A DNA stretch of 64,000 nucleotides from Myxococcota bacterium. GTDB taxonomy: Bacteria > Myxococcota_A > UBA9160 > SZUA-336. The stretch covers positions 1,498,669 through 1,562,668 of the forward strand of contig CBDFGR010000002.1 in assembly GCA_965247115.1 (NCBI GenBank), in the 5' to 3' direction. Positions 4,928 to 63,911 of this stretch are shown here, piece by piece; the stretch's first letter is position 1, and every line of letters begins with the position of its first letter. Made by a program: the position numbers and the translations under genes. The notes beneath the pieces were generated by a model that was not told the DNA's origin, made no database searches, and saw nothing but the letters and a program-made list of their open reading frames with translations.

Positions 4928-5015
4928 GAGCTCCTCAAGCTGGGCCCGGAGCACGCCGAAGCACCTCTTTGCACCTGGCGCTCTTGACCTTCGCTGACGA
5001 ACGGGGAGCACGGCT

Positions 5016-5509: not shown

Positions 5510-6646
5510 ATGTCGCAGTTCATCGAGGTCATCGAAAGCCTGGACACAACGGGCGACACCATCGTGTCGCGCTATCCCGCGGACGGTTCCGCCGAGATCA
5601 AGCTGGGGGCGCAGCTCGTCGTCCGTGAGAGCCAGGCGGCGGTTTTCTTCCGAGACGGACGAGCTCTGGATACGCTCGGGCCGGGGCGCCACACGCTGTC
5701 GACGCTGAACGTGCCCATCCTGACCAAGGTGCTGTCGCTGCCGACCGGGTTCACGAGCCCCTTCCGCGCGGAGGTCTACTTCCTGAACCTCAAGACCTTC
5801 ACGAATCAGAAGTGGGGAACCACAGAGCCCATCCTGTTCCGCGACGAGGAGCTGTCGATGGTTCGGCTGCGCTCGTTCGGCATGTTCTCGTTCCGGATCA
5901 CAAACGCCCAGGTGTTTCTCAACACGCTCTCCGGGACCGTCGGACGCCTTTACACCGACTGCATCGCGTCGTTCTTCCGCAGCTTCATCATCACGCAGGT
6001 CGCGGACTTCCTCGGCGAGCACCTGCGGAGCGTGCTCGACCTCGCGCAGTACTACAACGAGCTGAGCGCGGGCATCAAGGCGCACCTGATCTCGGACTTC
6101 GAGAAGTACGGCGTCACCGTCAGCGACTTCAAGATCCTGTCGATCTCGCCGCCCGACCACGTCCAGGAGATGATCGACAAGCGGGCCGGCATCGCGGCTG
6201 TTGGCAGCTTGGACAACTTCCTGCGCTATCAGGCCGGACACGCGCTGGGTATGGTCGGCGAGGCGGAGGGTGGAGAGGGCAGCTCCCTCTTGGGAGCCGG
6301 CGTCGGTCTCGGTGCCGGTGTGGGGATGGGCACCGGCGTTGCCGGCATGGTCTCGCAGGCGCTGTCCGGTGCAACGACTGGAGCTGCCGCGACAGGCTCG
6401 GTCTGCGCACGCTGTGCCGGCCAGATTCCGCCGGGCGCCGGCTTCTGTCCTGGTTGCGGAGGCCCGGTTGCGACCGCAACGAGCTGTACCAGCTGCCAGG
6501 CAAACGTCCCCGATGCGGCGAACTTCTGCCCCCAGTGCGGGGCCCAGCAAGGCGGCGCGCCATGTCCGAATTGCGAGGAGCAGATCGCGCTGGAGGCTCG
6601 TTTCTGCCCGAGCTGCGGGCACGGGCTCGAGGATCCCGGCGCCTAG
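5510..6646 (+). CDS. SPFH/band-7 (stomatin/flotillin-like) domain protein with three C-terminal zinc-ribbon motifs (COG4260-like)
   Basis: ATG at 5510 inside ORF 5171..6646; MSQFIEVIES...RESQAAVFFRDGRALDTLGPGRH... SPFH-like N-domain, Gly-rich linker, then CARCAG..CPGCGG, CTSCQ..CPQCG, CPNCEE..CPSCGH. Confidence 0.7.
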   Translation: MSQFIEVIESLDTTGDTIVSRYPADGSAEIKLGAQLVVRESQAAVFFRDGRALDTLGPGRHTLSTLNVPILTKVLSLPTGFTSPFRAEVYFLNLKTFTNQKWGTTEPILFRDEELSMVRLRSFGMFSFRITNAQVFLNTLSGTVGRLYTDCIASFFRSFIITQVADFLGEHLRSVLDLAQYYNELSAGIKAHLISDFEKYGVTVSDFKILSISPPDHVQEMIDKRAGIAAVGSLDNFLRYQAGHALGMVGEAEGGEGSSLLGAGVGLGAGVGMGTGVAGMVSQALSGATTGAAATGSVCARCAGQIPPGAGFCPGCGGPVATATSCTSCQANVPDAANFCPQCGAQQGGAPCPNCEEQIALEARFCPSCGHGLEDPGA

Positions 6647-10186: not shown

Positions 10187-10405
10187 ATGCACATCTCGAT
10201 TACGTACTGCGGGGCCTGAAACTACCTCCCGCAGGCCACCAGTCTGGCGGCCACGATCAAGGCAGAAGTCGGCGTCGAGACCGAGTTGATTCGCGGCGGC
10301 AGCGGCGTCTTCGACGTAGAGGTCGACGGCCGCACGATCTACTCCAAATCCGAGACCGGCCGCTTCCCCGAGCCGGACGAGATCCTCCCGGAGCTCAAGG
10401 GGTAG
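10187..10405 (+). CDS. selenoprotein W-like (Rdx/SelW/SelT family) small redox protein with in-frame UGA (Sec) at 10217-10219
   Basis: Manual translation from ATG 10187: MHISITYCGA-U-NYLPQATSLAATIKAEVGVETELIRGGSGVFDVEVDGRTIYSKSETGRFPEPDEILPELKG*; CxxU motif and FDVEVDG...SK...GRFP signature; not in ORF track because of the TGA. Confidence 0.75.
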
Positions 10406-10411
10406 TGGGCC

Positions 10412-10500
10412 TTTTGGGACCCGGCCGCGGGCGTCCGCGGCCACCCACCTCCGCTCAGGCCAGGGGCCTTCGCTGCGCGCGCCGCTCTCGCAGCGCTTGC
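10412..10500 (+). repeat. GC-rich ~90-bp multi-hairpin repeat, copy A (REP/RPE/MITE-like family)
   Basis: TTTTGGGACCCGGCCGCGGGCGTCCGCGGCCACCCACCTCCGCTCAGGCC-AGG-GGCCTTCGCTGCGCGCGCCGCTCTCGCAGCGCTTGC, immediately after the selenoprotein stop; matches copies B-H. Confidence 0.85.
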
Positions 10501-10570
10501 GCGGGTGCTTGGTCGAGGACGGGGTCGGGAGATGTCGACAGGGATGGAGGCGCGGCCTAGGCTCCGTCGC

Positions 10571-10933: not shown

Positions 10934-10953
10934 CAGTCGACCTCGGCACCGCA

Positions 10954-11043
10954 GCAAGCGCCGCGAACGCGGCGCGCGCAGCGAAGGCCCTCGGCCTGAG
11001 CGGAGGTGGGTGGCCGCGGACGCCCGCGGCCGGGTCCCACAAG
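10954..11043 (-). repeat. GC-rich ~90-bp repeat, copy B (inverted relative to A)
   Basis: GCAAGCGCCGCGAACGCGGCGCGCGCAGCGAAGGCCCTCGGCCTGAGCGGAGGTGGGTGGCCGCGGACGCCCGCGGCCGGGTCCCACAAG; ends next to the korB stop codon. Confidence 0.85.
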
Positions 11044-12069
11044 TTACGAGACGGTCCAGCGGTCGCCGGCGAAGAGGAGGTCGGCGAGGCCTGCGTCGCC
11101 ATGCGCGAGCTCGGCCTGGGACTGCTCCTGCGTTTCACCGTCGAAGGTTGGCTCCTCCACGGCCCGCAGCACGCCGATCGGCGTGGGGAAGTCGGGCGCC
11201 TCGCAGCGGGCCAGCAACATGGACAACGTCGGGTCCCGATTCGTCTCGTCGTGCAGGACCTCCACGCCGTCGTCCTTGGCACCGACGTGACCAGCGTAGA
11301 GGCGCAGGTAGGTCGGGTTTAGCTTGAGCATACGATCGTGATCGTTGCCGTAGATGAGCGGCTGACCGTTCTCGAGCACGAGCAGGTGGTCGGACTTGAT
11401 CTTGCGGTCCTTGACCTCATCGAACACACCGTCGTTATAGACCGGGCAGTTCTGGTAGATCTCGAGGAAGGCAGAGCCTTTGTGCTCGGCCATCCGGCGA
11501 ATCATTTCCTGCAGGTGACGGGTCTCCGTGTCTACCGTCCGCGCGACGAAGGTCGCCTCGGCTCCCAGCGCCAGCGAGAGGGTGCGAAATGGCCGGGCCA
11601 CCGATCCGTTTGGCGACGACTTCGTCTTCATGCCGATCTCGGAGGTGGGCGAGAACTGACCCTTGGTCAGCCCGTAGACCTTGTTGTTGAACAGCAGGAT
11701 CTTCAGATCCACGTTGCGACGCAGCATGTGGATCAGGTGGTTTCCACCGATAGACAGCCCATCACCGTCGCCGGTCACCACCCACACGGACAGGTCGGGT
11801 CGTGCGATCTTCAGTCCGGTCGCGATGGCCGGCGCGCGCCCGTGAATCGTGTGAAAACCGAACGTGTCCATGTAGTACGGAAAGCGCGAGCTGCAGCCGA
11901 TCCCGGACACGAAGACGATGTTCTCGCGCGGGACGCCCAGCTCGGGCATGACCTTCTGCATCTGGGCGAGGATGGCGTAGTCGCCACAGCCCGGGCACCA
12001 GCGCACCGCCTCGTCCGGAATGAAGTCCTTCTTGGTCAGCTTCGGGGCATCTGCGGTCTGAATGCTCAT
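11044..12069 (-). CDS. korB: 2-oxoglutarate:ferredoxin oxidoreductase beta subunit
   Basis: 341 aa; WCPGCGDYAIL...GIGCSSRFPYYM...VVTGDGDGLSIGGNHLIHMLRRN, TPP-binding beta subunit signature; 4-bp overlap with korA. Confidence 0.85.
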   Translation of the reverse strand: MSIQTADAPKLTKKDFIPDEAVRWCPGCGDYAILAQMQKVMPELGVPRENIVFVSGIGCSSRFPYYMDTFGFHTIHGRAPAIATGLKIARPDLSVWVVTGDGDGLSIGGNHLIHMLRRNVDLKILLFNNKVYGLTKGQFSPTSEIGMKTKSSPNGSVARPFRTLSLALGAEATFVARTVDTETRHLQEMIRRMAEHKGSAFLEIYQNCPVYNDGVFDEVKDRKIKSDHLLVLENGQPLIYGNDHDRMLKLNPTYLRLYAGHVGAKDDGVEVLHDETNRDPTLSMLLARCEAPDFPTPIGVLRAVEEPTFDGETQEQSQAELAHGDAGLADLLFAGDRWTVS

Positions 12070-14464: not shown

Positions 14465-14653
14465 GAAGGCCTCCCCGAGCCCCTCCGGGCAGTGCGAAAG
14501 AATCCGGCCAGTGGCTCCTGGCGTCGACCTGGAGCGTGTCCGCACCCGCTGGGAGGGGTCGTTTGCGCCTCCGCAGTCTACCCCATCCGCCAGAGCGCAA
14601 CCCGAGATCGACCTAGACGCCGCGCCCGCTGGGTTGAGTACAGGGGCACTACT

Positions 14654-14743
14654 GCAAGCGCCGCGAAGACGGCGCGCGCAGCGAAGGCCGTAGGCCTGAG
14701 CGGAGGTGGGTGGCCGCGGCCGCCCGCGGCCGGGTCCCACAAG
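14654..14743 (-). repeat. GC-rich ~90-bp repeat, copy C
   Basis: GCAAGCGCCGCGAAGACGGCGCGCGCAGCGAAGGCCGTAGGCCTGAGCGGAGGTGGGTGGCCGCGGCCGCCCGCGGCCGGGTCCCACAAG, directly 3' of the alcohol dehydrogenase stop (14755). Confidence 0.85.
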
Positions 14744-14754
14744 ACCCGATCCCA

Positions 14755-17877: not shown

Positions 17878-18984
17878 TCAGTACTGGATCACGCTGCGGA
17901 TGACCTCGCCAGCGTGCATCAGCTCGAAGGCGTCGTTTATTTTCTCGAGCGGCAGCGTCGCCGTGATCAGCTCGTCGATCTTGATGCGGCCGCTCATATA
18001 GCGATCGACGAAGCCCGGCAGCTGCGTGCGCCCGCGGGTCCCACCAAAGGCGCTGCCCCGCCACGAACGGCCCGTGACGAGGAGGAATGGCCGTGCCCTG
18101 ATCTCTTCGCCGGCGCCGGCCACACCGATGATGATCGCCTCTCCCCAGCCGCGATGTGTGCAGGCCAGCGCGGCGCTCATCACGTCGGTTCGACCGATGC
18201 ATTCGAAGGAGTAATCGACCCCGCCATCGGTCATGTCGACGATCGCGCCTGCGACGTCCTCCACTTCGCTCGGGTTCAGGAAGTCCGTCGCGCCGAGCTT
18301 CTCCGCCAGCTCGAACTTCTTCGGGTTGGTGTCGACGCCAACGATTCGCTCAGCCCCAGCGAGCACGGAGCCCTGGACGACGGAGAGACCGACGCCCCCC
18401 AGCCCGAACACCGCCACACTTGAGCCTGGCTCCACCTTCGCGGTGTGCAGGACAGCACCGATGCCGGTGGTGATCCCGCAACCGAGGAGACAGATTTTCT
18501 CGAGCGGCGCGTCCTTGCGCACCCTGGCGAGCGCGATCTCGGGCACCACACAGTACTCTCCGAACGTGGAGGTGCCCATGAAGTGGTGGATCAGCGTTCC
18601 CGATTGGGACAACCGACTCGTCCCGTCGGGCATCAAGCCCTGACCCTGGGTGGCGCGAATACGGGCGCACAAGTTCGTTCTGCCCGAGAGGCAGAACTTG
18701 CAGTCCCTACACTCGGGAATGTAGAGCGGGATGACGTGATCGCCGACCTCGACCGAGCGCACCCCGGTCCCCAGCTCCTCGACCACCCCTGCGCCCTCGT
18801 GACCCAGGACCGCGGGGAACACGCCCTCGGGATCGGCGCCACTCAGCGTGTAGGCATCTGTGTGGCAGACGCCGGTCGCAGCGAGGCGCACCAGGCATTC
18901 GCCCTCACGAGGGCCGTCGAGCTCGACCTCCTCGACCTCGAGCGGATGTCCCGCCTCCCACGCAACCGCGGCCTTGATCCTCAC
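17878..18984 (-). CDS. adhC: class III alcohol dehydrogenase / S-(hydroxymethyl)glutathione dehydrogenase
   Basis: GTG at 18984; ...RIKAAVAWEAGHPLEVEEVELDGPREGECLVRLAATGVCHTDAYTLSGADPEGVFPAVLGHEGAG... characteristic of FrmA/AdhC. Confidence 0.8.
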   Translation of the reverse strand: MRIKAAVAWEAGHPLEVEEVELDGPREGECLVRLAATGVCHTDAYTLSGADPEGVFPAVLGHEGAGVVEELGTGVRSVEVGDHVIPLYIPECRDCKFCLSGRTNLCARIRATQGQGLMPDGTSRLSQSGTLIHHFMGTSTFGEYCVVPEIALARVRKDAPLEKICLLGCGITTGIGAVLHTAKVEPGSSVAVFGLGGVGLSVVQGSVLAGAERIVGVDTNPKKFELAEKLGATDFLNPSEVEDVAGAIVDMTDGGVDYSFECIGRTDVMSAALACTHRGWGEAIIIGVAGAGEEIRARPFLLVTGRSWRGSAFGGTRGRTQLPGFVDRYMSGRIKIDELITATLPLEKINDAFELMHAGEVIRSVIQY

Positions 18985-42356: not shown

Positions 42357-43706
42357 CTAGCCGGACCCCCGGTTCTTCCGCCAGCTCGGGTGGGTGATTC
42401 CGAGGCGCTGCACGCGATAGTTGAGCTTGCGTCGGCTCATGCGAAGCAGATGGGCCGCGTCTTTCTGTACCCAGCTGGCGCGTTCCAGGGCCTGCAGGAC
42501 GAGCGAGCGCTCTACCTCTCGGTAGTCGACACCTTCGGCGGGCAGGCGCACCGCCATGCCTTCCCCGCCCTCGTACTCGGGCGCGTCCAGACACAGGTCG
42601 CAGCGCTCGACGCACTCGGAGTCGCCCATCAAGACCGCTCGCTCGACCACGTTGCGAAGCTCGCGCACGTTCCCTGGCCAGTGGTGTCGCATGAGCGCAT
42701 CCAGCGCCCCGGGCGAGAAGCCGCGCTTGGGTCTGGCCTCCAGCCGGTTGAACTCGCGCAAGAACTCCTGCGCCAGCTCCGGGACGTCGCAAGCTCGCTG
42801 GCGCAGCAGGGGCAGCCGAATGGTGATGACGTTCAGCCGGAAGAGCAGCTCCGCCCGGAACTGACCCGCTCGGATCATCTCGCGCAGGTCCTGGTTCGTG
42901 GCCGCGATCACCCGTACGTCGACGCGCAAGGACTGCGAGCCACCCAGACGCTCGAACTCGCGCTCTTGCAGCGCGCGCAGCACCTTGCCCTGAGTGCGCA
43001 GACTCATGTCTCCGATCTCGTCGAGGAACAGAGTCCCGCCGTCCGCCTCCTCGAAACGTCCGAGACGACGCTGCTCGGCTCCCGTGAACGCGCCACGCTC
43101 GTGACCGAACAGCTCGCTCTCGAGCAGCGGCTCTGGCAGCGCGGCGCAGTTCACCTTGACGATGCGCTGCGTGCGTCGAGGCGACAGAGCGTGAATAGTG
43201 CCGGCAACCAGCTCCTTGCCAGTCCCGGTTTCGCCGATCACGAGCACGCTGGCGCGCGAGCCAGCCACCTTCTTGATCTGCCGTCGCACGGCTTTGATCT
43301 CCGGACCGGAGCCGAGTATCGAGCGCTCGGTCTCGAGCGCCGCACTCTCGCCACGCAGACGCGCGAGCTCTACACGCAACCCAAGCTGTGCAAGCGCGCG
43401 ATCGAGCTTGATGCCCAGCTCGTCCAGATCAAAGGGGAAGGCGACAAAGTCGTCCGCCCCCTGCTTGAGTGCTGCCACCTGTGCCTCGACGCAGCCGCGC
43501 GCGCAGAGTGCCAGGATCGCCGGACGCGGTGAGAGAGCGGCGAGCTCGCGCAGTCGCGCAGCGGCTGCGGGGTAGTCGAGGATCGCTGCCCGCGGGACGC
43601 CTCCCGCCAGGCGCTCCTGTACCTCGTAGCCCTGCCCGGTGAGCCATCGCTCCAACTCCGAGCGGACTTTCGAGTCCCCGCAGACCAAGACCACGCGCTC
43701 GTGCAC
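42357..43706 (-). CDS. sigma-54-dependent response regulator (NtrC family)
   Basis: 449 aa; GETGTGKE Walker A, ESELFGHERGAFTGA (GAFTGA motif), C-terminal HTH. Confidence 0.9.
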   Translation of the reverse strand: MHERVVLVCGDSKVRSELERWLTGQGYEVQERLAGGVPRAAILDYPAAAARLRELAALSPRPAILALCARGCVEAQVAALKQGADDFVAFPFDLDELGIKLDRALAQLGLRVELARLRGESAALETERSILGSGPEIKAVRRQIKKVAGSRASVLVIGETGTGKELVAGTIHALSPRRTQRIVKVNCAALPEPLLESELFGHERGAFTGAEQRRLGRFEEADGGTLFLDEIGDMSLRTQGKVLRALQEREFERLGGSQSLRVDVRVIAATNQDLREMIRAGQFRAELLFRLNVITIRLPLLRQRACDVPELAQEFLREFNRLEARPKRGFSPGALDALMRHHWPGNVRELRNVVERAVLMGDSECVERCDLCLDAPEYEGGEGMAVRLPAEGVDYREVERSLVLQALERASWVQKDAAHLLRMSRRKLNYRVQRLGITHPSWRKNRGSG

Positions 43707-46401: not shown

Positions 46402-46425
46402 GAACAAAGCATAACGAAAAGCAAA

Positions 46426-46471
46426 CCCCTACCCGATCGGCAACCTGAACCCCTAGCCGATCGGCAACCTG
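46426..46471. promoter_or_regulatory. tandem 24-bp direct repeat, each unit carrying the palindrome CCGATCGG; candidate regulator-binding site
   Basis: CCCCTACCCGATCGGCAACCTG-aa-CCCCTAGCCGATCGGCAACCTG located 25-70 bp upstream of the epimerase start. Confidence 0.35.
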
Positions 46472-46553
46472 CAAGCGCCGCAATTGCGGCGCGCGCAGCG
46501 AAGGCCTGAGCGAAGGTGGGTGGCCCGCGGACGCCCGCGGGCCGGGTCCCACA
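46471..46553 (-). repeat. GC-rich repeat, copy D (short variant lacking the GGCC-N3-GGCC hairpin)
   Basis: GCAAGCGCCGCAATTGCGGCGCGCGCAGCGAAGGCCTGAGCGAAGGTGGGTGGCCCGCGGACGCCCGCGGGCCGGGTCCCACAG directly 3' of the sigma-54 regulator stop (46559). Confidence 0.8.
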
Positions 46554-46558
46554 GGGAC

Positions 46559-47986
46559 TCACTCCGCGAGGCCACACTCCTTGATCTTCTGGAGGAGGGT
46601 CTTGTAGCTCACCTCGAGGATCTTGGCGGCCTTCTTGCGGTTCCAGTTCGTCTGATACAAAACTTGTCGCAGCGCCCGCCGTTCCGCCGCTCGAGCGGCT
46701 CGCTTGCCGATCTCGCGCAGCGACACACCCTCCTGCGTCGGATCGAGCTCCGGAGCCGCCTCGTCCTCTTCCTCCACTCTCGGGTGGACCGAAGCACTGG
46801 TTCCAAAAACCTCGTCCGCGATGACCTCCTCGCTTTGCAGCACGACGATGCGCTTCAGCATGTTCTCGAGCTCACGCACGTTCCCCGGCCAGGGATACTC
46901 CTTGAAGCCCTGCCGGAGGCGCTTGGACAGCGTGACTTGCTCGCGCCCGTACTCGCGGCTGTACAGCGTCAGGAAGTGGTCGGTGAGAAGCGGGATCTCC
47001 TCTGGCCGCTCGCGGAGCGGCGGCACGCGGACGTTCACGACGTTCAGCCGGTAATACAGATCCTCGCGGAACGTGCCTTTGCGAACCATCTCCTCCAGGT
47101 TGCGGTTCGTCGCGGCCACGACGCGGACGTCGACGCGGACCTCGGTGTGGCCGCCGAGCCGTGAGAACTCGCCGTCCTGGAGGACCTGCAGGAGCTTCGC
47201 TTGGAGCTTGGGACTCATCTCCCCGATCTCATCGAGGAACATGGTGCCACCGCAGGCGACCTCGAACTTGCCCGGCTTGCGGGACGTCGCGCCCGTGAAG
47301 GCCCCGCGCTCGTAGCCGAACAGCTCGCTCTCGAGCAGCTCCTCGGGCAAGGCCGCGCAGTTCACCTTGACGAAGCGCTTCGTGCGCCGCGTGGACAGCT
47401 CGTGCACGGTACGCGCCACGACCTCCTTGCCCACGCCACTTTCACCGTGGATCAATACGGTCACCCCGGCGTCGCCGATCTGCTCGAGGATCTCCCGGAT
47501 CCGGTTCATCTGCTCGGAGGCCCAGAGGAACGTCGCCTTGCCGCGACCGCGTTGGCTCCCGGGCAGCTCGTCCTGGTGGACCTCGGGGGCAGAGTCGAAC
47601 GCCCGCTCGAGCGCGTCCCCGAGCTCCTTCTCCTCGAAGGGCTTGTTCAGGTAGTCAACCGCGCCGATGTTCATCGCCTCCACTACGGTGGCCGCCTTGC
47701 GCACCACCGAGAGCATGATCACGGGCATGCTCGGCAAGCGGCGGCGAATCTCGCGCAGCGTGTCCAGACCACCCAGGTCCGGCATCATGACATCGAGGAA
47801 GATCGCGTCCGGCTGGGTTTCCCGCTCGAGGAGCTCTAGCGCCGCGGCGCCGTCCGCGGCCAGCACGACGTCGTATCCCAAAAGAGGCAGCAGGTTCTGC
47901 AGGTAAGCCCGAATGGCCTCTGCGTCGTCAACGACCATCACCCGTCTGCGCGAGGGAATACTTCGCGGCGCTCCGGACCTAGTCAT
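46559..47986 (-). CDS. sigma-54-dependent response regulator (NtrC family)
   Basis: RRRVMVVDDAEAIRAY receiver; GESGVGKE; ESELFGYERGAFTGA; C-terminal HTH. ATG at 47986 (track ORF starts at GTG 47995). Confidence 0.9.
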   Translation of the reverse strand: MTRSGAPRSIPSRRRVMVVDDAEAIRAYLQNLLPLLGYDVVLAADGAAALELLERETQPDAIFLDVMMPDLGGLDTLREIRRRLPSMPVIMLSVVRKAATVVEAMNIGAVDYLNKPFEEKELGDALERAFDSAPEVHQDELPGSQRGRGKATFLWASEQMNRIREILEQIGDAGVTVLIHGESGVGKEVVARTVHELSTRRTKRFVKVNCAALPEELLESELFGYERGAFTGATSRKPGKFEVACGGTMFLDEIGEMSPKLQAKLLQVLQDGEFSRLGGHTEVRVDVRVVAATNRNLEEMVRKGTFREDLYYRLNVVNVRVPPLRERPEEIPLLTDHFLTLYSREYGREQVTLSKRLRQGFKEYPWPGNVRELENMLKRIVVLQSEEVIADEVFGTSASVHPRVEEEDEAAPELDPTQEGVSLREIGKRAARAAERRALRQVLYQTNWNRKKAAKILEVSYKTLLQKIKECGLAE

Positions 47987-48044
47987 GGCGGTCACAGCTC
48001 GAGTCCATCGCTCACTCTATCGGCGAGGAACTCCGCGGGCTTGT

Positions 48045-48240
48045 CTTGTGGGACCCGGCCCGCGGGCGGCCGCGGGCCACCCACCTTCGCTCAGGCCAAA
48101 GGCCTTCGCTGCGCGCGCCGCTTCCGCGGCGCTTGCCTTGTGGGACCCGGCCCGCGGGCGGCCGCGGGCCACCCACCTTCGCTCAGGCCAAAGGCCCTCG
48201 CTGCGCGCGCCGCTTCCGCGGCGCTGCGCGCGCCGCTGCA
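48045..48240 (+). repeat. GC-rich repeat, copies E1 and E2 (two tandem units, period 92 bp)
   Basis: CTTGTGGGACCCGGCCCGCGGGCGGCCGCGGGCCACCCACCTTCGCTCAGGCCAAAGGCC(T/C)TCGCTGCGCGCGCCGCTTCCGCGGCGCTTGC twice, in the divergent intergenic region between the sigma-54 regulator and ligA. Confidence 0.85.
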
Positions 48241-48406
48241 TGGGTGGGGACTCCGCAACGGGTTGCCGATTCTTCACGGAATCTGAACTTGGGAATCTGA
48301 ACTTGGGGACGGTCCTTAATCTTGCACTCGCTGCTGGCGCGGAAGGCGTGCGCTGGCGCATGCTGTCGCCACAAAGGTGCGGATTTTTGCTGAGGTCGGG
48401 GCGTAG

Positions 48407-51770: not shown

Positions 51771-51783
51771 CCGAGCCAACCGG

Positions 51784-51876
51784 GCAAGCGCCGCGGAACG
51801 CGGCGCGCGCAGCGAAGGCCGAAGGCCTGAGCGAAGGTGGGTGGCCCGCGGACGCCCGCGGGTCGGGTCCCACAAG
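51784..51876 (-). repeat. GC-rich repeat, copy F
   Basis: GCAAGCGCCGCGGAACGCGGCGCGCGCAGCGAAGGCCGAAGGCCTGAGCGAAGGTGGGTGGCCCGCGGACGCCCGCGGGTCGGGTCCCACAAG between convergent yraN-like and rplS. Confidence 0.85.
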
Positions 51877-51882
51877 ACAGGT

Positions 51883-54466: not shown

Positions 54467-55055
54467 GCACGGCCGCCTCCAGGATCGCGTCGAAGCGGAT
54501 CGCCCCCTCGCGCAGGAGACGCAGGTTCCCGTCGGGATCGAGTGCAACGACGCTCGACGGGGCAAGATTCCCGGCCGTCCCCGCGACGACTGGCAGCTCC
54601 TGGCCGAAGAGCTCGTGAACCTCGCAAGCGGTCCCACATGGCGCTTCCCCGCTGCGATTGCAGCTCGTCGCGGCGATCGGCCGCTCGTACAGCCGCGCCA
54701 GGCGAGCGGCGACCGGGTGCGAGGAGCACCGAAAGCCGACACCGAACTCTGTAGCCACCTGCGCGAACGCGACGTCGACCTGTTGCAGCACCAGGGTGAG
54801 GGGACCGGGCCAGAAGCGCTTGGTCAAAAGAAGCGCTGGTTCGGGAAGGCTCGGGAGCCAGGCCTCCAGCGCGCTCGCGTCCCGGACCAGCACCGAGAGC
54901 CCGCGCTCGGGCGCCCGCCCCTTGAGGACTTGGAGTGCCTCGAGCGCGCTCGGCTCGAAGACGTCGACACCGAGGCCAAAGACGGTCTCGGTGGGATAGG
55001 CCACGACCCGCCCAGTCCCGAGGAGGCGAACGGCCTCGTCCGCAGAAACGATCAA
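54456..55055 (-). CDS. tsaC: L-threonylcarbamoyladenylate synthase (YrdC/TsaC family)
   Basis: TTG at 55055 overlapping purD stop (TTGA); ...GRVVAYPTETVFGLGVD...KGRAPERGLSVLV... YrdC motif. Confidence 0.75.
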   Translation of the reverse strand: MIVSADEAVRLLGTGRVVAYPTETVFGLGVDVFEPSALEALQVLKGRAPERGLSVLVRDASALEAWLPSLPEPALLLTKRFWPGPLTLVLQQVDVAFAQVATEFGVGFRCSSHPVAARLARLYERPIAATSCNRSGEAPCGTACEVHELFGQELPVVAGTAGNLAPSSVVALDPDGNLRLLREGAIRFDAILEAAVLSR

Positions 55056-56623
55056 CCCGCGTGGTCCCGGAGCGCCCGGAGCGCAATGTCGCTCCTGAGC
55101 TGGGCACCCTCGAACTGGATGCGACGCGCGGCGGCGTAGGCACGATCGCGGGCGGCGGCGATGCTGGCACCGCGGGCCGTGATGCCGAGCACGCGCCCAC
55201 CTGCCGTCTCCCAGCGACCGCCAGAGCGGCGGGTGGCGGCGTGAAACACGAGAACCTCCGGCTCGCTCTCGAGCTCCTCGAGCCCCCTGATCTCTCGCCC
55301 CACCGGGTAGCTGCGCGGATAGCCCTCGCTCGCCAGCACGACGCACACGGCCGGATCCCCGAAGACGGGGCCTGCGGGACCCGGCGCGCGAGCGGTCGCG
55401 CGCCACCCACCTCCGCTCGGCTTCGCCTCGCTGCGCGCGCCGCTATCCGCGGCGCTTGCACCTGCGGGACCCGGCGCGCGAGCGGTCGCGCGCCACCCAC
55501 CTCCGCTCGGCTTCGCCTCGCTGCGCGCGCCGCTATCCGCGGCGCTTGCACCTGCGGGACCCGGCGCGCGAGCGGTCGCGCGCCACCCACCTCCGCTCGG
55601 CTTCGCCTCGCTGCGCGCGCCGCTATCCGCGGCGCTTGCACCTGCGGGATCCGGCGCGCGAGCCGCTTGCAGAGGGAGCTGGCCCTGGGCCGCACCCACG
55701 AGCAGCGGGACGAGGTCGGACTCCATTCGGTACAGCAGAGGCTGCGTCTCCGGGTCGCCGAAGCGGACGTTAAACTCCACCACAACGGGCTCGGCCTCGA
55801 CGACCATCACGCCGACGTAGAGCACTCCCCGATAGGGCGTGCCCTCCGCACGCAGGCCGTCGAGCGTGGGCTGAACGATCTTCTCGATGATTCGCTGCTC
55901 CACGTCGGGGCTCACAACCGGGGCCGGGGAGTAGGCGCCCATGCCTCCTGTGTTCTCGCCGCGGTCACCGTCTAGCGCGCGTTTGTGATCCTGCGCAGCG
56001 GCCAGGCACACGCTGCGCTCCCCGTCGGAGATCGCGTAGTACGAGGCCTCCTCGCCAACGAGCCAGTCCTCGATCACGACCTCGGCACCGGAGTCGCCGA
56101 AGCGCCGCTCGCGCATGATCTCCGAGAGGGCAACGCTCGCCTCATCCGGACCCGCGCACATGTACACGCCCTTGCCAGCCGCGAGCCCGTCCGCCTTCAC
56201 GACAAGCGGCCCGCCGCGAGCGCGCACATACCGCTCCGCTTTGTCTGGGTCCGCGAAGCCCTGGTAGGCGGCAGTCGGGATGCCGTGGCGCTGCATGAAG
56301 GCCTTGGCGAAGCTCTTGCTGCCCTCAAGGCGAGCCGCGGCCGCGCCGGGCCCGAATACCGCGATCCCGGCAGCCTCGAGGTGATCCGCCAATCCCGCGA
56401 CCAGGGGAACCTCGGGACCGACGACCACCAGCTGAACGTCCTCGCGTTTCACGAGCTCCACGACGGAGTCGGGGCTGGCCAGCCGCGCCTCCGCACAGCG
56501 GCCGTGTCGCCCGATGCCGTCGCTGCCCGGGGCGCAGAGCACCTCGTCGACCAGCGGGCTGCGGCCGATCGCCCAGACCAGCGCGTGCTCACGACCTCCC
56601 GAGCCCAGAACCAGGACGCGCAT
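55052..56623 (-). CDS. purD: phosphoribosylamine--glycine ligase, carrying an about 95-aa in-frame insertion of repeat units
   Basis: MRVLVLGSGGREHAL...PLVVKADGLAAGKGV...FNVRFGDPETQ... then (ASAADSGARSEAKPSGGGWRATARAPGPAG)x3 before ...VVLASEGYP...; ATG at 56623 with GGAGGAG RBS. Confidence 0.9.
   Translation of the reverse strand: MRVLVLGSGGREHALVWAIGRSPLVDEVLCAPGSDGIGRHGRCAEARLASPDSVVELVKREDVQLVVVGPEVPLVAGLADHLEAAGIAVFGPGAAAARLEGSKSFAKAFMQRHGIPTAAYQGFADPDKAERYVRARGGPLVVKADGLAAGKGVYMCAGPDEASVALSEIMRERRFGDSGAEVVIEDWLVGEEASYYAISDGERSVCLAAAQDHKRALDGDRGENTGGMGAYSPAPVVSPDVEQRIIEKIVQPTLDGLRAEGTPYRGVLYVGVMVVEAEPVVVEFNVRFGDPETQPLLYRMESDLVPLLVGAAQGQLPLQAARAPDPAGASAADSGARSEAKPSGGGWRATARAPGPAGASAADSGARSEAKPSGGGWRATARAPGPAGASAADSGARSEAKPSGGGWRATARAPGPAGPVFGDPAVCVVLASEGYPRSYPVGREIRGLEELESEPEVLVFHAATRRSGGRWETAGGRVLGITARGASIAAARDRAYAAARRIQFEGAQLRSDIALRALRDHAG
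55371..55674 (+). repeat. GC-rich repeat, copies G1-G3 plus a partial fourth, period exactly 90 bp, inside purD coding sequence
   Basis: CCTGCGGGACCCGGCGCGCGAGCGGTCGCGCGCCACCCACCTCCGCTCGGCTTCGCCTCGCTGCGCGCGCCGCTATCCGCGGCGCTTGCA repeated at 55371, 55461, 55551; a diverged variant of the intergenic repeat. Confidence 0.85.
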
Positions 56624-56631
56624 CACTCCTC

Positions 56632-56751
56632 CTTGTGGGACCCGCGCGCGGGCGGCCCTCCCGCGGGTCAACGACCCGCGGGCCGCTGACGGCTTCCCAC
56701 CTTCGCTCAGGCCTACGGCCTTCGCTGCGCGCGCCGCTATGCGGCGCTTGC
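56632..56751 (+). repeat. GC-rich repeat, copy H (long variant with about 30-bp internal insertion)
   Basis: CTTGTGGGACCCGCGCGCGGGCGGCCCTCCCGCGGG...TTCCCACCTTCGCTCAGGCCTACGGCCTTCGCTGCGCGCGCCGCTATGCGGCGCTTGC; abuts the purD RBS and lies 3' of alr. Confidence 0.8.
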
Positions 56752-56802
56752 AGGCTGCCTATTCTAGCGCTCAGGCTTACGACCTTCGGCGCGTTTCTTG
56801 GG

Positions 56803-57924
56803 TCAGCAGATGACCCGGGGGATGCGCGGGCCGATCCGGACCAGGATCTCGTAGGAGATGGTGTCGGCGGCCAGGGCCAGCTCCTCGACACGAAGCTCGA
56901 GCGCGGCGCGCCGGCCGAAGAGGAGCACCTCGTCTCCCTCGTGGCCCTCCCCGACCCGACCCACGTCGACGGTCGCCAGGTCACAAGAGACGCGGCCCAC
57001 GAGCGGGACGCGTCGGCCGCGATGGCCGACCTGCAGGCGATTCCCCGCCGCCCGCGGCAGACCGTCCGCGTAGCCGATCGGCAGGGTCAGGATGCGCGTC
57101 GCATCCGGCGTCTCGTACGTCCCCCCGTACCCGATGCGCATGCCCGCAGGGACGTCCTTCGCCAGGCAGACACGCGCACACAGCGTCATCACCGCCTCGA
57201 GCGCGTGCCCGCCCTCGAGCGTGGGGTCGGCCCCGTACAGCGCGAGGCCGGGGCGTACTGCCGTCGTGTCCGGGGTCGCGCCCCGCACGATCCCTGCGGA
57301 GTTGTCGATGTGGGTCCACTCCGGCTCGAAGCCCGCGTCGCGGACCTGCGCGAGGAGCTCCCCGAACAGCTTGCGTTGGCGCTCGGTCACGGCGGACGAA
57401 GGATCGTCCGCCTCCGCCAAGTGGCTCATGACCCCTTCCAGACCGACCTCCGGGGTCGAGCCCAGACGCTCGAGGATCGGCGTCAGATCCCGCGGCAGGA
57501 AGCCCAGGCGTCCCATCCCCGTGTCCAACTTCAGGTGGACAGGCGCACGCACTCCCGCCCGCTTCGCCGCAGCCGCGACCGCTTCCAGATGCTGCAGGCG
57601 CAGCAATGTTGGCACCACCTGAAGGGCCAGCAGCTCGTCCGCGTGTTGCGGCGTAAGCGGCCCCGCCAGCAGGAGAATCGGTGCTCGGATCGAGGCCTGC
57701 CGCAGCTCCCGCGCCTCCTCCAGCGTGACCACGGCGAGCGCGTCGCAACCTGCGCGCACGAGGGCATGCGAGACCGGAACGACACCGTGTCCGTAGGCGT
57801 TCGCCTTGACGACCGCGATCACGCGTCGGTCCCGCGCCTGCTGCCGGAGCTGGGCGTAATTCCGCTGCAGCGCGCCGAGGTCGATCTCGGCCCAGGCGCG
57901 CGCCTTCTCCTCGGTCACCTTCAC
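56803..57924 (-). CDS. alr: alanine racemase
   Basis: ...AVVKANAYGHGV... PLP-lysine motif; GTG at 57924 chosen so the gene does not overlap thiS. Confidence 0.85.
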   Translation of the reverse strand: MKVTEEKARAWAEIDLGALQRNYAQLRQQARDRRVIAVVKANAYGHGVVPVSHALVRAGCDALAVVTLEEARELRQASIRAPILLLAGPLTPQHADELLALQVVPTLLRLQHLEAVAAAAKRAGVRAPVHLKLDTGMGRLGFLPRDLTPILERLGSTPEVGLEGVMSHLAEADDPSSAVTERQRKLFGELLAQVRDAGFEPEWTHIDNSAGIVRGATPDTTAVRPGLALYGADPTLEGGHALEAVMTLCARVCLAKDVPAGMRIGYGGTYETPDATRILTLPIGYADGLPRAAGNRLQVGHRGRRVPLVGRVSCDLATVDVGRVGEGHEGDEVLLFGRRAALELRVEELALAADTISYEILVRIGPRIPRVIC

Positions 57925-59602: not shown

Positions 59603-61053
59603 CTCGCGCCTCACTCCTCGTACCGTTCGTCGCGAGCTTGGTCGGCTGCACAAGCCTGCCGAGCGCGCTCGCGAACGATCCGCTGGAGGCCCTGCAGACC
59701 CGGGTCATCGACGTCAACCACGCGGCGAGCCCCTCCGTCGTCCACATCGAGGCGGCGCTCAAGGTCAACAACCGGCGCAAGCTGGTGACAGGCTCCGGCT
59801 TCATTACCCATCCCGAGGGCATCGTGGTGACAAACGAGCACGTGGTCGAGCGGGCGCAGAAGGTCACCGTCCTGGTTCCTGGACGCGAGGGTCGCTATGC
59901 GGCGCAGGTCGTGGGAACGGACAAGCAGACGGACCTCGCGGTCCTGCGCATCGAGCCGCGCGAGGGGGAGCCGCCTTTCGCCGCAGCCGCACTCGGTGAC
60001 TCCGACCAGCTGCGCGTTGGGGAGTGGGTGATCGCGATCGGAAATCCCTACGGGCTGGAAGGGACGGTCTCGCTTGGGATCGTGTCGGCCAAGGGCCGGG
60101 ATCTGAAAGAAGGGAATCTGCTGAACGACTTCATCCAGACGGACGCCATGATCGATCACGGCTCGTCGGGCGGACCTTTGCTCGATCTGGACGGGCTGGT
60201 CGTAGGCGTGAATTCCCGCGGCCAGGGTCGCGGCATCGGCTTCACCATCCCCATCAACACGGCCAAGCAGGTCGCGGCCGATCTGCTGGGCGAGGGGCGC
60301 ATCGCGCGCGGCTATCTCGGCGTGTCCATTCAGCCGCTCGATCGCGAGCTCGCCCGCTACTGGGGCATCGAGCAGATCCACGGCGTGATCGTCGGCGCGG
60401 TGACGCACCAATCGCCTGCCCAGAATGCCGGGCTCCACGTGGGCGACATCATCACGCGCTTCGACGGCGAGGAGATCCGCGCGGAGAAGGACGAGGACAT
60501 GGGCCAGTTCCAGCGCCTGATCGCGGCCATGCAGGCGGGGGAGGAGGTCGCGATCGACGTATTGCGCGGTGGTGAGCACAAGACCGTTACCGCGACGCTG
60601 AGCGCCCAGCCCAAGGTCGTACCCGATGAGGAAGAGACCGAGCTCGGCTTCACCGCCCAGGAGGTGACCGAGATCCTCTATCGATCCCACCGTCTCGAGC
60701 AACGCTCCGGGGTGCTCTGCTCCTTCGTCGAGCGCGGCTCGGAGGCGGCTGAGGCGGGCATGGCACCTGGAGACCTGATCGTGGAGGTCGAGGGGGTCGA
60801 GATCCGCGACATCGAGGAGTTCCGGCAGGCGATGAGGGACCTGCGTCCTGGCACTCCGTTCCTGATCCGGGCGCTGCGTGGCGACAACATGCGGTACATG
60901 CTGGTCGTGCCGCGTTCCGGCGACTTCCGGGCCGCAAGCGCGAGACCCGAGCGGCAGCTTGCGCGCAAGATCGATGTGCGAGCCAGAGACGAGGGCGGGG
61001 AGGGAACAGATCTTGCGCAGTCATCCTCTGAAGGCAGGCGGATCACCAAATAG
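59599..61053 (+). CDS. HtrA/DegP family periplasmic serine protease with PDZ domains (paralog 1)
   Basis: 484 aa; signal/lipoprotein-like N-terminus; ...VVTNEHVV..., ...DLAVL..., ...GSSGGPL catalytic triad context; PDZ region. Confidence 0.9.
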   Translation: MTRASLLVPFVASLVGCTSLPSALANDPLEALQTRVIDVNHAASPSVVHIEAALKVNNRRKLVTGSGFITHPEGIVVTNEHVVERAQKVTVLVPGREGRYAAQVVGTDKQTDLAVLRIEPREGEPPFAAAALGDSDQLRVGEWVIAIGNPYGLEGTVSLGIVSAKGRDLKEGNLLNDFIQTDAMIDHGSSGGPLLDLDGLVVGVNSRGQGRGIGFTIPINTAKQVAADLLGEGRIARGYLGVSIQPLDRELARYWGIEQIHGVIVGAVTHQSPAQNAGLHVGDIITRFDGEEIRAEKDEDMGQFQRLIAAMQAGEEVAIDVLRGGEHKTVTATLSAQPKVVPDEEETELGFTAQEVTEILYRSHRLEQRSGVLCSFVERGSEAAEAGMAPGDLIVEVEGVEIRDIEEFRQAMRDLRPGTPFLIRALRGDNMRYMLVVPRSGDFRAASARPERQLARKIDVRARDEGGEGTDLAQSSSEGRRITK

Positions 61054-61087
61054 GGCGGCGGAGCCCGCCGTCAAAGGGACTGGCCCG

Positions 61088-62443
61088 ATGAAGAGCACCC
61101 TACTCGCTTGGGTCGTCCTTCCGATCCTCGCGATCGGGAGCACGGCTGTAGCCGACGTCGACACGCGCCGCACCCCCATTGTGAAGGCCGTAGAGCGCGT
61201 TGGCCCAGCCACAGTGAACATCACCTCGACCCAGGAGGTGCGCCAGCGGGCCAATCCCTTCTTCAGCTCGGACCCGTTCATCGAGAAGTTCTTCGGCACC
61301 TTCCTCGATCCCCGGCGCCGAACGGTCAGCAGCCTGGGTACCGGCCTCATCATCGGGCCAGAGGGCCAGGTGCTGACGAACGAGCACGTCCTGGCCGGCG
61401 CGACACAGATCCACGTCGTGCTCGCCGACGGGCGCGAGTTCGACGCCGAGCTCATCGGCGCGGACCCGGAGACGGACCTCGCGGTCGTGCAGATCAGCGC
61501 GGACGAGCCGCTGCCCTTCGTGGAGCTCGGGAGCTCGGAGGATCTGCTGATTGGCGAGACCGTGATCGCGATCGGGAACCCTTTCGGCCTGCACCACACG
61601 GTAACAACCGGCGTGCTCTCAGCGGAGAACCGCTCGATCCGCGCGGGCGACCGCGAGTACCACGGGTTCCTGCAGACCGACGCAAGTATCAACCCAGGGA
61701 ACTCGGGCGGACCGCTGCTCAACATCGACGGCGACGTGATCGCCATCAATACCGCCATCTTTCGCGAGGCGGAGGGAATCGGCTTTGCCATCCCGATAGA
61801 CAGGGCGAAGCGGGTCGTCGACGACCTCTTGACCCACGGCGAGGTCATTCCGGTCTGGCTGGGCCTTCGCCTGCAAGACCTCACCCAGAGCCTCCGCGAC
61901 GCGTTCACTGCCCGCGCGACGGGCGGCGTCCTGATTACGCACGTCTTCGCTGACTCCCCCGCGCAGCGCGCGAAGCTGCGCCGTGGCGACATCCTGCTCG
62001 AGCTGGATGGGACGAAGATCGGCACCGCGCGCAACTACTTCGAGGTCCTGGCCGGGCTGACCGATGGGGACCGCGCCGAGCTCGTGATCGACCGCGGGGG
62101 AGATCAACATCGGCAGGAGACGCACGCTGAGATCTTTCCGGAGAGCAGGGCCGACGAGCTGGCTCAGATCCTTCTCGGTGTGGAAGTTGCGGAGATAGAC
62201 AGTGAGCCGGGGGCCCGCCGCCGGGGCAACCGCGGCCTCGTAGTGCGGCGTGTCATCCCCCGTAGCTCAGCGGATTACAAGAGGATTCGACCAGGCGATG
62301 TGATCCTGAAGATCGACCAGGACCCGGTCGAGGATCGTGTTGCCTTTCGCAAGGCGATTACTAAGCTTCGCGGACGTGGACAGGTGCTCCTTCTCGTCCA
62401 GCGCGAGCGCTATGGCTACTACGTGACCCTGGATCTGTCCTAG
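61088..62443 (+). CDS. HtrA/DegP family serine protease (paralog 2)
   Basis: ATG at 61088; MKSTLLAWVVLPILAIG signal peptide; ...VLTNEHVL..., ...DLAVV..., ...GNSGGPL... Confidence 0.9.
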   Translation: MKSTLLAWVVLPILAIGSTAVADVDTRRTPIVKAVERVGPATVNITSTQEVRQRANPFFSSDPFIEKFFGTFLDPRRRTVSSLGTGLIIGPEGQVLTNEHVLAGATQIHVVLADGREFDAELIGADPETDLAVVQISADEPLPFVELGSSEDLLIGETVIAIGNPFGLHHTVTTGVLSAENRSIRAGDREYHGFLQTDASINPGNSGGPLLNIDGDVIAINTAIFREAEGIGFAIPIDRAKRVVDDLLTHGEVIPVWLGLRLQDLTQSLRDAFTARATGGVLITHVFADSPAQRAKLRRGDILLELDGTKIGTARNYFEVLAGLTDGDRAELVIDRGGDQHRQETHAEIFPESRADELAQILLGVEVAEIDSEPGARRRGNRGLVVRRVIPRSSADYKRIRPGDVILKIDQDPVEDRVAFRKAITKLRGRGQVLLLVQRERYGYYVTLDLS

Positions 62444-62462
62444 ACCGCAGGAGAGGAATTCG

Positions 62463-63911
62463 ATGAGACACGGCAAGGTTCTGGCGGCGATCGGCTTCGC
62501 GTTTGGGGGATTGCTGATCCTCACCCAACCGCTGGGCCTGGAGCTGCGGCTGAGCGAAAAGAGTGCCCACGCCCGCGTCGCGGGCGACGCCTTCTGGACG
62601 GACGGACAACCCGGCCCCACGCTCGGCAGGCCCGACTCGGTGGCGGATCTGGCCGAGGCCCTGTCTCCCGCGGTCGTGAACATCAAAACGGAGCGGAAGA
62701 GCAGCGCTCGCAGTCCCGACATCTTCGAGGAGTTCTTCGGGCGCCGCCGTCCTCGGGGAGGACCGCCTCCACAGTTCCGCACCGACGCGACGGGCTCGGG
62801 CTTCGTAATCTCCGAGGACGGCTACATCGTGACGAACAACCACGTGGTGGAGGGAGCCGACAAGATCGTTGTGGTGCTGGACAACGGAGAGGAGCTCGAT
62901 GCGGAGATCGTCGGTCGTGACCCGGAGACGGACCTGGCGTTGCTCAAGATAGACGCCGATCACGAGCTCAACGTCGCACCGCTAGGTGACTCCGACGCCA
63001 TCCGCGTCGGCGATTGGCTCATGGCGATCGGCAATCCCTTCGGACTCGATCACACGGTTACCCTCGGCATCCTGTCCGCGCGCGGCCGCAACATCAACGC
63101 AGGAAGGTACGACGACTTCCTGCAGACCGACGCGAGCATAAATCCTGGCAACTCGGGTGGACCGCTGTTCGACATGCGCGGGCGCGTGATCGGGATCAAC
63201 ACGGCAATCAACCAGAACGGTCAGGGCATCGGCTTTGCCATCCCGATCAACATGGCGAAGGATCTGCTCCCTCAGCTGCGCGCCGTGGGCGCGGTGACGC
63301 GAGGCTGGCTCGGTGTGCAGATTCAGCGCGTGAACCCGGCCCTGGCGAAGAGCTTCGGGCTCGATGAGCCGCGCGGCGCCCTCATCTCCATGGTCTTCGA
63401 GGACGGGCCGGCGGACAAGGCCCGGATCAAGCGCGGCGACGTGATCGTCGAGTTCGACGGCTCCGCGATCGACGAGTTCAACGACCTTCCGAGAATCGTG
63501 GCGAATACCGCTCCCGAGAGCGAGGTCTCGGTCAAGGTGCTGCGCGACGGTAAGGCCAAGACCCTCAAGGCAAGGCTCGGCAAGCTGGAGGAGGACCAGG
63601 TCCAGCTGGCATCGACCGAGCGCCACGATTCCGAGTGGGGCTTCGAGGTGGAGGCCCTGACCAGCGACATCGTGGAGAGGCTCGATCTGGACAAGGACCT
63701 GTCCGGCGTCCTGGTAACGGGCGTCGATCCCGAGTCAGGTGCCTACGATGAGGGGCTGCGCCAGGGCGACATCATTCTCGAGGTGAACCGCACCGAGGTC
63801 TCCCGGCCCGACCAGGTGACCCGGGCGCTCGAGAAGGAAGACGAGCACGCCGTGCTTCTCGTGCAGCGAGGCGAGGCGACGCTGTATCTCGCGATCGAGC
63901 GGGAGCGGTAG
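62463..63911 (+). CDS. HtrA/DegP family serine protease with two PDZ domains (paralog 3)
   Basis: 482 aa; ...IVTNNHVV..., ...DLALL..., ...GNSGGPL...; two PDZ-like C-terminal regions. Confidence 0.9.
   Translation: MRHGKVLAAIGFAFGGLLILTQPLGLELRLSEKSAHARVAGDAFWTDGQPGPTLGRPDSVADLAEALSPAVVNIKTERKSSARSPDIFEEFFGRRRPRGGPPPQFRTDATGSGFVISEDGYIVTNNHVVEGADKIVVVLDNGEELDAEIVGRDPETDLALLKIDADHELNVAPLGDSDAIRVGDWLMAIGNPFGLDHTVTLGILSARGRNINAGRYDDFLQTDASINPGNSGGPLFDMRGRVIGINTAINQNGQGIGFAIPINMAKDLLPQLRAVGAVTRGWLGVQIQRVNPALAKSFGLDEPRGALISMVFEDGPADKARIKRGDVIVEFDGSAIDEFNDLPRIVANTAPESEVSVKVLRDGKAKTLKARLGKLEEDQVQLASTERHDSEWGFEVEALTSDIVERLDLDKDLSGVLVTGVDPESGAYDEGLRQGDIILEVNRTEVSRPDQVTRALEKEDEHAVLLVQRGEATLYLAIERER

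Follow-up and report, generated by a model that had tools for sequence, protein, structure and literature searches.

An in-frame tandem array of a three-hairpin repeat, variable in copy number, in the purD gene of a Myxococcota lineage

Rickettsia palindromic elements (RPEs) are small, hairpin-forming dispersed repeats that, in the account of Ogata et al. (2000) as relayed by a 2024 review (PMC10969869), lie in frame in housekeeping or metabolic genes and are translated. According to the review's treatment of these elements, they are inserted where the protein fold tolerates them, and the host gene stays functional (PMC10969869). We describe a similar situation in a 64,000-nt stretch of the genome of a bacterium from an uncultured Myxococcota lineage (hereafter the window), where units of a dispersed, hairpin-forming repeat lie in frame within purD, the gene encoding phosphoribosylamine-glycine ligase (GAR synthetase). 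There are also clear differences. As far as the review describes them, RPEs enter open reading frames frequently (for some families, about half of all copies) and as single insertions of ~100–150 bp, whereas only 1 of ~47 sites of the myxococcotal family is of this kind, and the insertion in purD is a polymorphic tandem array. Hence, frequent in-frame insertion into coding genes is not a trait of this family. Moreover, RPEs reside in AT-rich Rickettsia, whereas our window is Myxococcota DNA with a GC content of ~72%, and the likeness is functional only. Judged from host phylum and base composition, homology with RPEs is implausible.

A second comparison is offered by the mycobacterial interspersed repetitive units (MIRU-VNTR loci), in which dispersed units of 40–100 bp reportedly form head-to-tail arrays at many loci, with a copy number that varies among strains. 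MIRU units are of lengths that permit read-through, and VNTR loci are in some cases found inside open reading frames. MIRUs are found inside operons, in one orientation, with short coupling ORFs. The myxococcotal family likewise has dispersed units in head-to-tail, strain-variable arrays, although this is a likeness of behaviour only. It differs from MIRUs in that its copies occur in both orientations and at gene ends, and in its three conserved hairpins. The nearest match in Rfam was a mycobacterial sRNA with an E-value of 0.18, which is noise.

REP, BIME and REPIN sequences resemble the family as GC-rich palindromes located right after stop codons or before start codons, in part as head-to-head inverted doublets, with a lineage-restricted distribution. 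However, a REP is a single palindrome of 20–40 nt, whereas the myxococcotal repeat is a three-hairpin composite of ~90 nt. REPs are also extragenic by definition; the myxococcotal family is mostly extragenic, at gene ends, but its purD copies are intragenic. MITE-like elements such as ERIC and BOX (Delihas 2007; Croucher 2011, in PMC10969869) are similar in that they are small non-autonomous repeats that can be read through and can give in-frame fusions or insertions. The myxococcotal family differs from these MITE-like elements by its lack of terminal inverted repeats and target-site duplications, and by an array that expands in tandem inside a gene. A first-pass annotation of the window, made from the sequence alone, had considered in-frame repeat insertions into essential genes unusual outside Rickettsia. 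This was overstated, since intragenic in-frame fusions of MITE-like elements (ERIC, BOX, RPE) are "not unusual", with RPEs as the extreme case (PMC10969869). All in all, the myxococcotal repeat probably falls outside RPE, MIRU and REP/REPIN, where RPE and MIRU were compared by behaviour.

PurD and the array in its interdomain linker

The purD gene (55052–56623, minus strand) extends from an ATG at 56623–56621 to a TGA at 55054–55052 and encodes a protein of 523 aa, which was identified by matches to the Pfam domains GARS_N, GARS_A and GARS_C and to PurD structures in the PDB. Its TGA overlaps with the TTG start of a downstream tsaC/yrdC-like (Sua5/YrdC) gene, an overlap of 4 nt. Both the gene order alr-purD-tsaC/yrdC-like and this 4-nt stop/start overlap are kept in related loci, including L001.

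The Pfam domains of PurD are complete and in order, with GARS_N at residues 1–100, the ATP-grasp domain GARS_A at 101–293 and GARS_C at 425–515. They cover profile positions 1–100 of 100, 1–194 of 194 and 1–91 of 92, respectively, at scores far above the gathering thresholds. PurD chains in the PDB align with the protein as two blocks, residues 1–314 and 425–518 (best E 4e-119, for 2yw2), and the linker between the A and C domains comprises ~107 residues, versus ~11 residues in crystal PurDs. The insertion is located after the last helix of the A domain (residues 305–313) and before the first strand of the C domain (residues 425–431). The sequence of this A-C linker is variable among the 74 PurDs that we compared. 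In relatives PurD has 427 aa, and hence the array-bearing enzyme is longer by 96 residues.

The first-pass annotation had described three in-frame tandem copies of a 90-nt unit in purD, adding about 95 residues, and this was borne out by Tandem Repeats Finder (55371–55663; period 90 nt, 3.3 copies, 99% matches, score 579) and by the translation. The array as a whole (55371–55670) consists of three 90-nt units and a truncated unit of 31 nt, all within the purD frame; across it, PurD reads ...LVPLLVGAAQGQLPLQAARAPDPAG(ASAADSGARSEAKPSGGGWRATARAPGPAG)x3 PVFGDPAVCVVLASEGYP... The truncated unit (55640–55670, minus strand) comes first in the coding sense and encodes ...LQAARAPDPAG. It joins the 5' 7 nt of the unit to its 3' 24 nt, with 59 internal nt missing; the reading phase of the initial 7 nt differs from that in a full unit. 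It is followed by unit 1 (55550–55639, minus strand), which is 90 nt long, encodes ASAADSGARSEAKPSGGGWRATARAPGPAG and matches the covariance model described below at 55549–55652 (76.8 bits), and by unit 2 (55460–55549, minus strand), also 90 nt long and with the same sequence as unit 1. The last base of unit 3 (55371–55459, minus strand; covariance-model match at 55369–55460, 69.3 bits) merges into native purD, and PVFGDPAVCVVLASEGYP of the C domain comes next. A partial fourth copy had been noted before. Such a copy is indeed present, but it is an internally deleted unit that occurs in all alleles, with three, one or zero full units.

The array peptide is of low complexity, dominated by Ala, Gly, Ser, Pro and Arg, and has no Pfam match. 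Tryptic peptides expected from the array include SEAKPSGGGWR and APGPAGASAADSGAR. As the 90-nt unit has no stop codon in the purD frame, each unit would be translated as a disordered segment of 30 residues. The AlphaFold2 model (based on a 74-sequence alignment; pTM 0.82) had pLDDT values above 90 in the core and below 50 for residues 332–416, and its core superimposed on A. aeolicus PurD 2yw2 with a target-normalised TM-score of 0.95 and an rmsd of 1.8 Å. The array segment is predicted by this model to form a disordered loop on an otherwise canonical PurD fold, between the A and C domains. This is consistent with the surface-loop placement that the first-pass annotation had proposed.

A lineage-restricted family of three-hairpin repeats

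The repeat in purD belongs to a family that is dispersed over the window. Copies are located at 10403–10513, 10941–11045, 14641–14745, 46458–46557 and 51771–51878, and an intergenic tandem array at 48032–48241 contains 2.1 copies with a period of 92 nt (Tandem Repeats Finder span 48032–48225). In agreement with the earlier annotation, a further copy lies in the alr-purD spacer (56655–56767, minus strand, in the same orientation as purD), directly 5' of the purD ribosome binding site. This copy has an extra hairpin within hairpin 3, and its GGGTCCCACAAG end continues into the ribosome binding site (AAGGAGGAGTGATG). It is kept in L001 and L002, and a degenerate version is found in the sister species L024. 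The core motif of the family yielded 10 matches in the window, versus 0 expected from shuffles. An exact-core scan of one genome per GTDB species matched a single genome, the Myxococcota bacterium MAG CBDDEE01, which had 23 matches and shares ~85–88% identity with the window in orthologous regions.

A covariance model (R1) built on 35 family copies recovered 53 copies in 280 kb, including the purD units and two degenerate sister-species copies. The family folds into three hairpins, with 99% of the cells paired and compensatory double changes at 10 of the 27 pairs (52 distinct copies). These pairing statistics were matched by 0 of 500 shuffles and by none of the slid controls, for an alignment that was itself fitted to the model. 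Across the family, hairpin 3 also shows a paired indel of one base pair. The purD units, in which the core GCGGCGCGCGCAGCG...GAGCGRAGGTGGG is present without a mismatch, matched the covariance model with 69–77 bits (E 4e-10 to 2e-11). The purD unit retains the full set of three hairpins, of which hairpins 2 and 3 depart from the consensus by compensated changes. Its hairpin 3 (GGCGCGCGA/TCGCGCGCC) is the same as in L005, while its short hairpin 2 (GGC-GAA-GCC) is the same as in L007, L016 and L018. The purD unit is therefore a mosaic of sub-variants seen elsewhere, and an ordinary member of the family rather than an outlier. The first-pass annotation had called it a diverged variant of the intergenic repeat; the relationship is supported by the bit scores, but no marked divergence is seen.

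At gathering thresholds, no Rfam family matched anywhere in the window, and at permissive E-values the region 55300–56850 returned only noise (E 0.18–0.65). Our search of the literature gave no relevant result on comparable repeats in myxobacteria. The three-hairpin family is lineage-restricted and uncatalogued, and has no match in Rfam.

Other copies in the window adjoin gene ends: four lie 0 to ~25 nt past stop codons on the opposite strand, and three lie just 5' of start codons. Family copies occur in both orientations, and some are arranged as head-to-head inverted doublets (e.g., L007, 4792–5032). We screened the covariance-model matches for open frames that run through the element and extend 60 codons or more to either side, and translated and inspected ten candidates. 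Genuine coding sequence on both sides was found only at purD. The ten spanning-ORF candidates were rejected as insertions, as real protein on one side only signifies an element beside a gene start or end. None of the ~47 other family sites, which are intergenic, contained an in-frame insertion in a real gene. With purD as the sole case among ~47 sites, it is only by rare accident that the family colonises a real gene in frame.

From a database of 5.8 billion protein sequences, concatenated six-frame translations of the repeat retrieved only PurD and three spurious ORFs from long intergenic arrays, in a search that is insensitive to solo insertions of 30 residues. These long arrays of related genomes have been mis-called as 'proteins' of 263–344 aa (P0121–P0123), in which the reading frame rotates every 92 nt. 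We also considered whether the 90-nt length is special, and rejected this: core lengths mostly fall between 85 and 94 nt, and 18 of the 49 are divisible by three, about as many as expected by chance. Since in-frame lengths occur only at chance level, the repeat has probably survived in purD because selection favoured an insertion that keeps the frame, lacks stop codons and lies in a linker able to tolerate it.

Copy number of the array and the empty site

The first-pass annotation had raised the question whether the insertion is strain-specific and variable in copy number. Alignment with the PurDs of close relatives showed that it is limited to one species-level lineage, in which the number of full units is 0, 1 or 3. 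The 523-aa PurD with three units was found as three different sequences in three assemblies (P0001, P0126 and P0127, on contigs of 2.2 Mb, 447 kb and 61 kb), the 463-aa PurD with one unit in two assemblies (P0002, P0129), and the 433-aa PurD with zero units, which has the remnant only, in two assemblies (P0003, P0130). These seven alleles are 98–100% identical outside the array, and the ORF is intact in all of them. At the DNA level, purD alleles with 97–99% identity carry 0, 1 or 3 units. A 2-unit allele was absent among the seven sequences. More distant PurD relatives (≤92% identity) all have a length of 420–435 aa.

The differences between alleles are clean. The window aligns base for base with L001 (1 unit, ~99% identical) save a gap of 180 nt, and with L002 (0 units, ~97% identical) save a gap of 270 nt. 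The 0-unit allele retains the truncated unit (QQAVRAPGPAS) with differences of its own, and in its 3' part this remnant looks like the final portion of a full unit, as would be expected if the truncated unit had recombined with the last of the full units.

The sister species L024 (~85% DNA identity) has a PurD of 427 aa with an empty linker site, LPADLKEPVFG. Compared to this empty site, ~17 nt of the ancestral linker were apparently replaced at the insertion. Neither terminal inverted repeats nor a clear target-site duplication were seen in the family alignments. The family ends, (GGCAACC)TGCAAGCGCC... and ...GGGTCCCACAAG, are not inverted copies of each other, and a consistent flanking duplication is absent from these alignments, where only the 3' end is sometimes duplicated. 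L024 already holds family copies, including one upstream of purD, and yet its purD site is empty; hence, the family is older than the insertion.

The 1-unit and 0-unit states each occur on both haplotypes, Q251/A259 and E251/E259. The number of units is therefore independent of the flanking haplotype, which indicates either that copy number changed repeatedly or that alleles recombined. Intergenic arrays vary as well. The array at 48032–48225 has 2.1 units of 92 nt in the window, 2 units of 105 nt in L001 and 1 unit in L002. Together with the long arrays in related genomes, this shows that tandem expansion and contraction are general to the family. It shows MIRU-VNTR-like behaviour, with head-to-tail arrays at several loci and a copy number that varies among strains.

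Origin and tolerance of the insertion

Our preferred reading, to which we assign a probability of roughly 80%, is that a unit of the family landed in the A-C linker of PurD, expanded there as an in-frame VNTR and has been tolerated as a near-neutral passenger. A three-hairpin unit of ~90 nt would have entered the variable surface linker in the lineage ancestral to a single species-level population of Myxococcota, and its translation would add an intrinsically disordered segment of 30 residues rich in Ala, Gly, Ser, Pro and Arg. The head-to-tail units are nearly identical, which suggests that the array grows and shrinks by replication slippage (slipped-strand mispairing) or by unequal recombination between units. 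Because the steps are exactly 90 nt, any copy number remains in frame. The enzyme core would be left untouched, and the encoded loop presumably has little effect on catalysis. Most likely, the insertion represents selfish or repeat DNA turned into a protein linker, presumably a neutral one, and not a functional module.

A more far-reaching interpretation, which we consider rather doubtful, is that the family may be an active mobile element of free-living Myxococcota, possibly RNA-mediated or hairpin-DNA-mediated, that can colonise essential coding sequence and grow there as an in-frame VNTR. If this interpretation were true, purD would be a natural, still-segregating case in which non-coding selfish DNA gives rise to new, length-variable, disordered protein linkers, and copy number may have selectable effects on the expression of purD and tsaC or on the behaviour of PurD.

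An alternative explanation might be that the insertion is adaptive, either because extremely stable hairpins in the mRNA tune the translation of purD and the coupled tsaC, or because the disordered 30-residue repeats serve as a length-tunable linker or interaction tether, with copy number as a contingency mechanism. The 341-nt mRNA segment of the array folds at −217 kcal/mol, and an adaptive role could account for the persistence of the array on several haplotypes, for the hairpins kept by the coding copy, and for the conservation across species of the family copy at the 5' end of purD, a gene that is translationally coupled to its downstream neighbour. Yet, the fold has a z-score of only −2.2 compared to shuffles of this sequence, which has a GC content of 80%. 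The units are 100% identical, which points to a recent expansion instead of long maintenance; in addition, the population also contains alleles without a full unit, and the insertion is missing from the sister species. On/off switching would not be expected from an array in which every copy number is in frame, and the peptide is of low complexity and lacks a Pfam match. An adaptive role is therefore unlikely.

It is also quite improbable that purD is decaying or its product inactive, such that the cell would use another purD or purine salvage. Adding 96 residues to an enzyme of 427 residues could in principle be harmful, but the intact ORF of 7 out of 7 alleles argues against decay, as do the conserved operon context and translational coupling. 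Outside the array, pN/pS was 0.06 between the window and L001, both of which bear the insertion (6 synonymous versus 1 nonsynonymous changes, i.e., only 7 substitutions), and 0.09–0.10 in comparison with L002. Furthermore, the array-bearing PurD keeps every alignment column that shows no variation among the 74 PurDs. Strong purifying selection thus acts on PurD beyond the array. The first-pass annotation had judged the flanking PurD sequence intact and canonical, which is in line with the complete Pfam domains, the invariant residues and this selection. Among the best 120 database matches, none was a further close purD encoded on these large contigs. As far as sequence can tell, PurD has probably retained its enzymatic activity (PRA + glycine + ATP -> GAR).

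Could the three copies be an artefact of assembly? Mis-assembly at tandem repeats is a classic problem, and the L001 contig has a coverage of only 4x and several split genes. However, the 523-aa form was found in three assemblies with different point substitutions, the 463-aa and 433-aa forms in two assemblies each, and the remnant in the 0-unit allele differs in sequence from that of the other alleles. The contigs are 0.05–2.2 Mb long and carry names ('ctg..._9x_l') that suggest long-read assemblies, and an array of 300 nt is shorter than long reads. Since each allele occurs in at least two independent assemblies with point differences of its own, and the array is short compared to long reads, an artefact is very unlikely indeed. 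Scarcely any more credible is that the repeat was native to purD and later seeded the intergenic family, which would fit the homology of the copies but nothing more specific, because the sister species and CBDDEE01 are rich in family copies while the purD site is empty where seen, the hairpin sub-variants brought together in the purD unit are widespread outside purD, and conservation in the family follows base-paired stems, not codons.

We therefore return to an insertion that was tolerated in the linker and expanded there. To our knowledge, comparable cases outside Rickettsia are mostly anecdotal. The purD locus captures, at the level of a population, how an intergenic repeat gives rise to protein sequence within a core metabolic enzyme of a free-living bacterium, and the empty site, the remnant and the 1-unit and 3-unit alleles can all be compared. 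The strongly structured family gives rise to spurious 'proteins' in public databases and could confuse the annotation and assembly of MAGs. The allele series itself could be used to measure the dynamics of tandem arrays within a coding region, and to test how well the interdomain linker of an ATP-grasp enzyme tolerates disordered insertions.

Tandem arrays and strain comparison

Outside purD, the repeat family also forms an intergenic tandem array upstream of a sigma54-activator gene (window 48032-48241, minus-strand orientation), and its copy number differs among strains. The window carries 2.1 copies of 92 nt, the ~99% identical locus L001 carries 2 copies of 105 nt (18304-18517), with the GGGTCCCACAA end duplicated, and the ~97% identical locus L002 carries a single copy (18210-18316). 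The window also holds two paralogous sigma54-type response-regulator genes (42600-43250 and 46800-47450; repeat families D5 and D14).

The single-base reliability of L001 (ENA ERZ25069191 ctg573244_4x_l) is limited. Several genes are broken up in L001 that L002 has whole: ligA (459 + 202 aa), PHO4 and one HtrA gene. These splits are likely sequencing errors because the coverage is only 4x. Three tandem HtrA/DegP-like protease paralogues lie at 59900-63300 of the window (repeat families D4, D7 and D9).

Long intergenic arrays of the repeat have also entered public protein collections. The database entries P0121, P0122 and P0123 are gene calls of 263-344 aa, in none of which a Pfam domain was found. 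They are spurious proteins, read-through translations of such arrays in which the reading frame rotates with every 92-nt unit.

Duplicated ends and inverted doublets

In several copies the 3'-terminal motif GGGTCCCACAAG is repeated once more, 2-4 nt downstream. This was observed in L001 (14562-14600) and at five other loci carrying the family, L007 (~1565-1595), L009 (~3485-3515), L010 (~6570-6600), L013 (~4045-4075) and L021 (~6305-6335). The duplication may be the footprint of an insertion or array-seeding mechanism.

Some copies form head-to-head inverted doublets, which recall REPIN doublets. They occur in the window (10403-10513 / 10941-11045), in L007 (4792-4892 / 4928-5032), where the 46-nt arms are 98% complementary, and in two further loci, L008 (2131-2236 / 2244-2348) and L020 (1679-1781 / 1797-1902). 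Frequently, a 'GGCAACC' module is found 5' of the element's 5' end. The module is also contained in AACCCCTACCCGATCGGCAACCTG, a 24-nt sequence present in two tandem copies at window 46424-46471, immediately 5' to the 46458-46557 element; the same duplication is found at the orthologous site of L001 (20103-20150).

Position of the repeat relative to purD and other genes

The copy upstream of purD (56655-56767) belongs to a sub-variant with an extra ~35-nt hairpin within hairpin 3 (GCCGTCAGCGGCCCGCGGGTCGTTGACCCGCGG...), which also occurs at another locus, L011 (5562-5697). Its position is kept in L001 and L002, and a degenerate form is present in the sister species (L024, 2924-3020). At the other end of the gene, the downstream Sua5/YrdC/TsaC-like gene begins with a TTG that shares bases with the stop codon of purD (TTGA; window 55052-55057), and therefore maintenance of the purD frame matters for translational coupling too.

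In every window copy listed for this comparison (n=6; 10941-11045, 14641-14745, 46458-46557, 48032-48241, 51771-51878 and 56655-56767), the GGGTCCCACAAG end lies towards a gene end. Four of these place it 0-25 nt beyond an opposite-strand gene's stop codon, while the remaining copies place it immediately 5' of a start codon; at 56655-56767 it continues into the purD RBS. This consistent placement towards gene ends suggests targeted insertion of the element or a UTR-related role.
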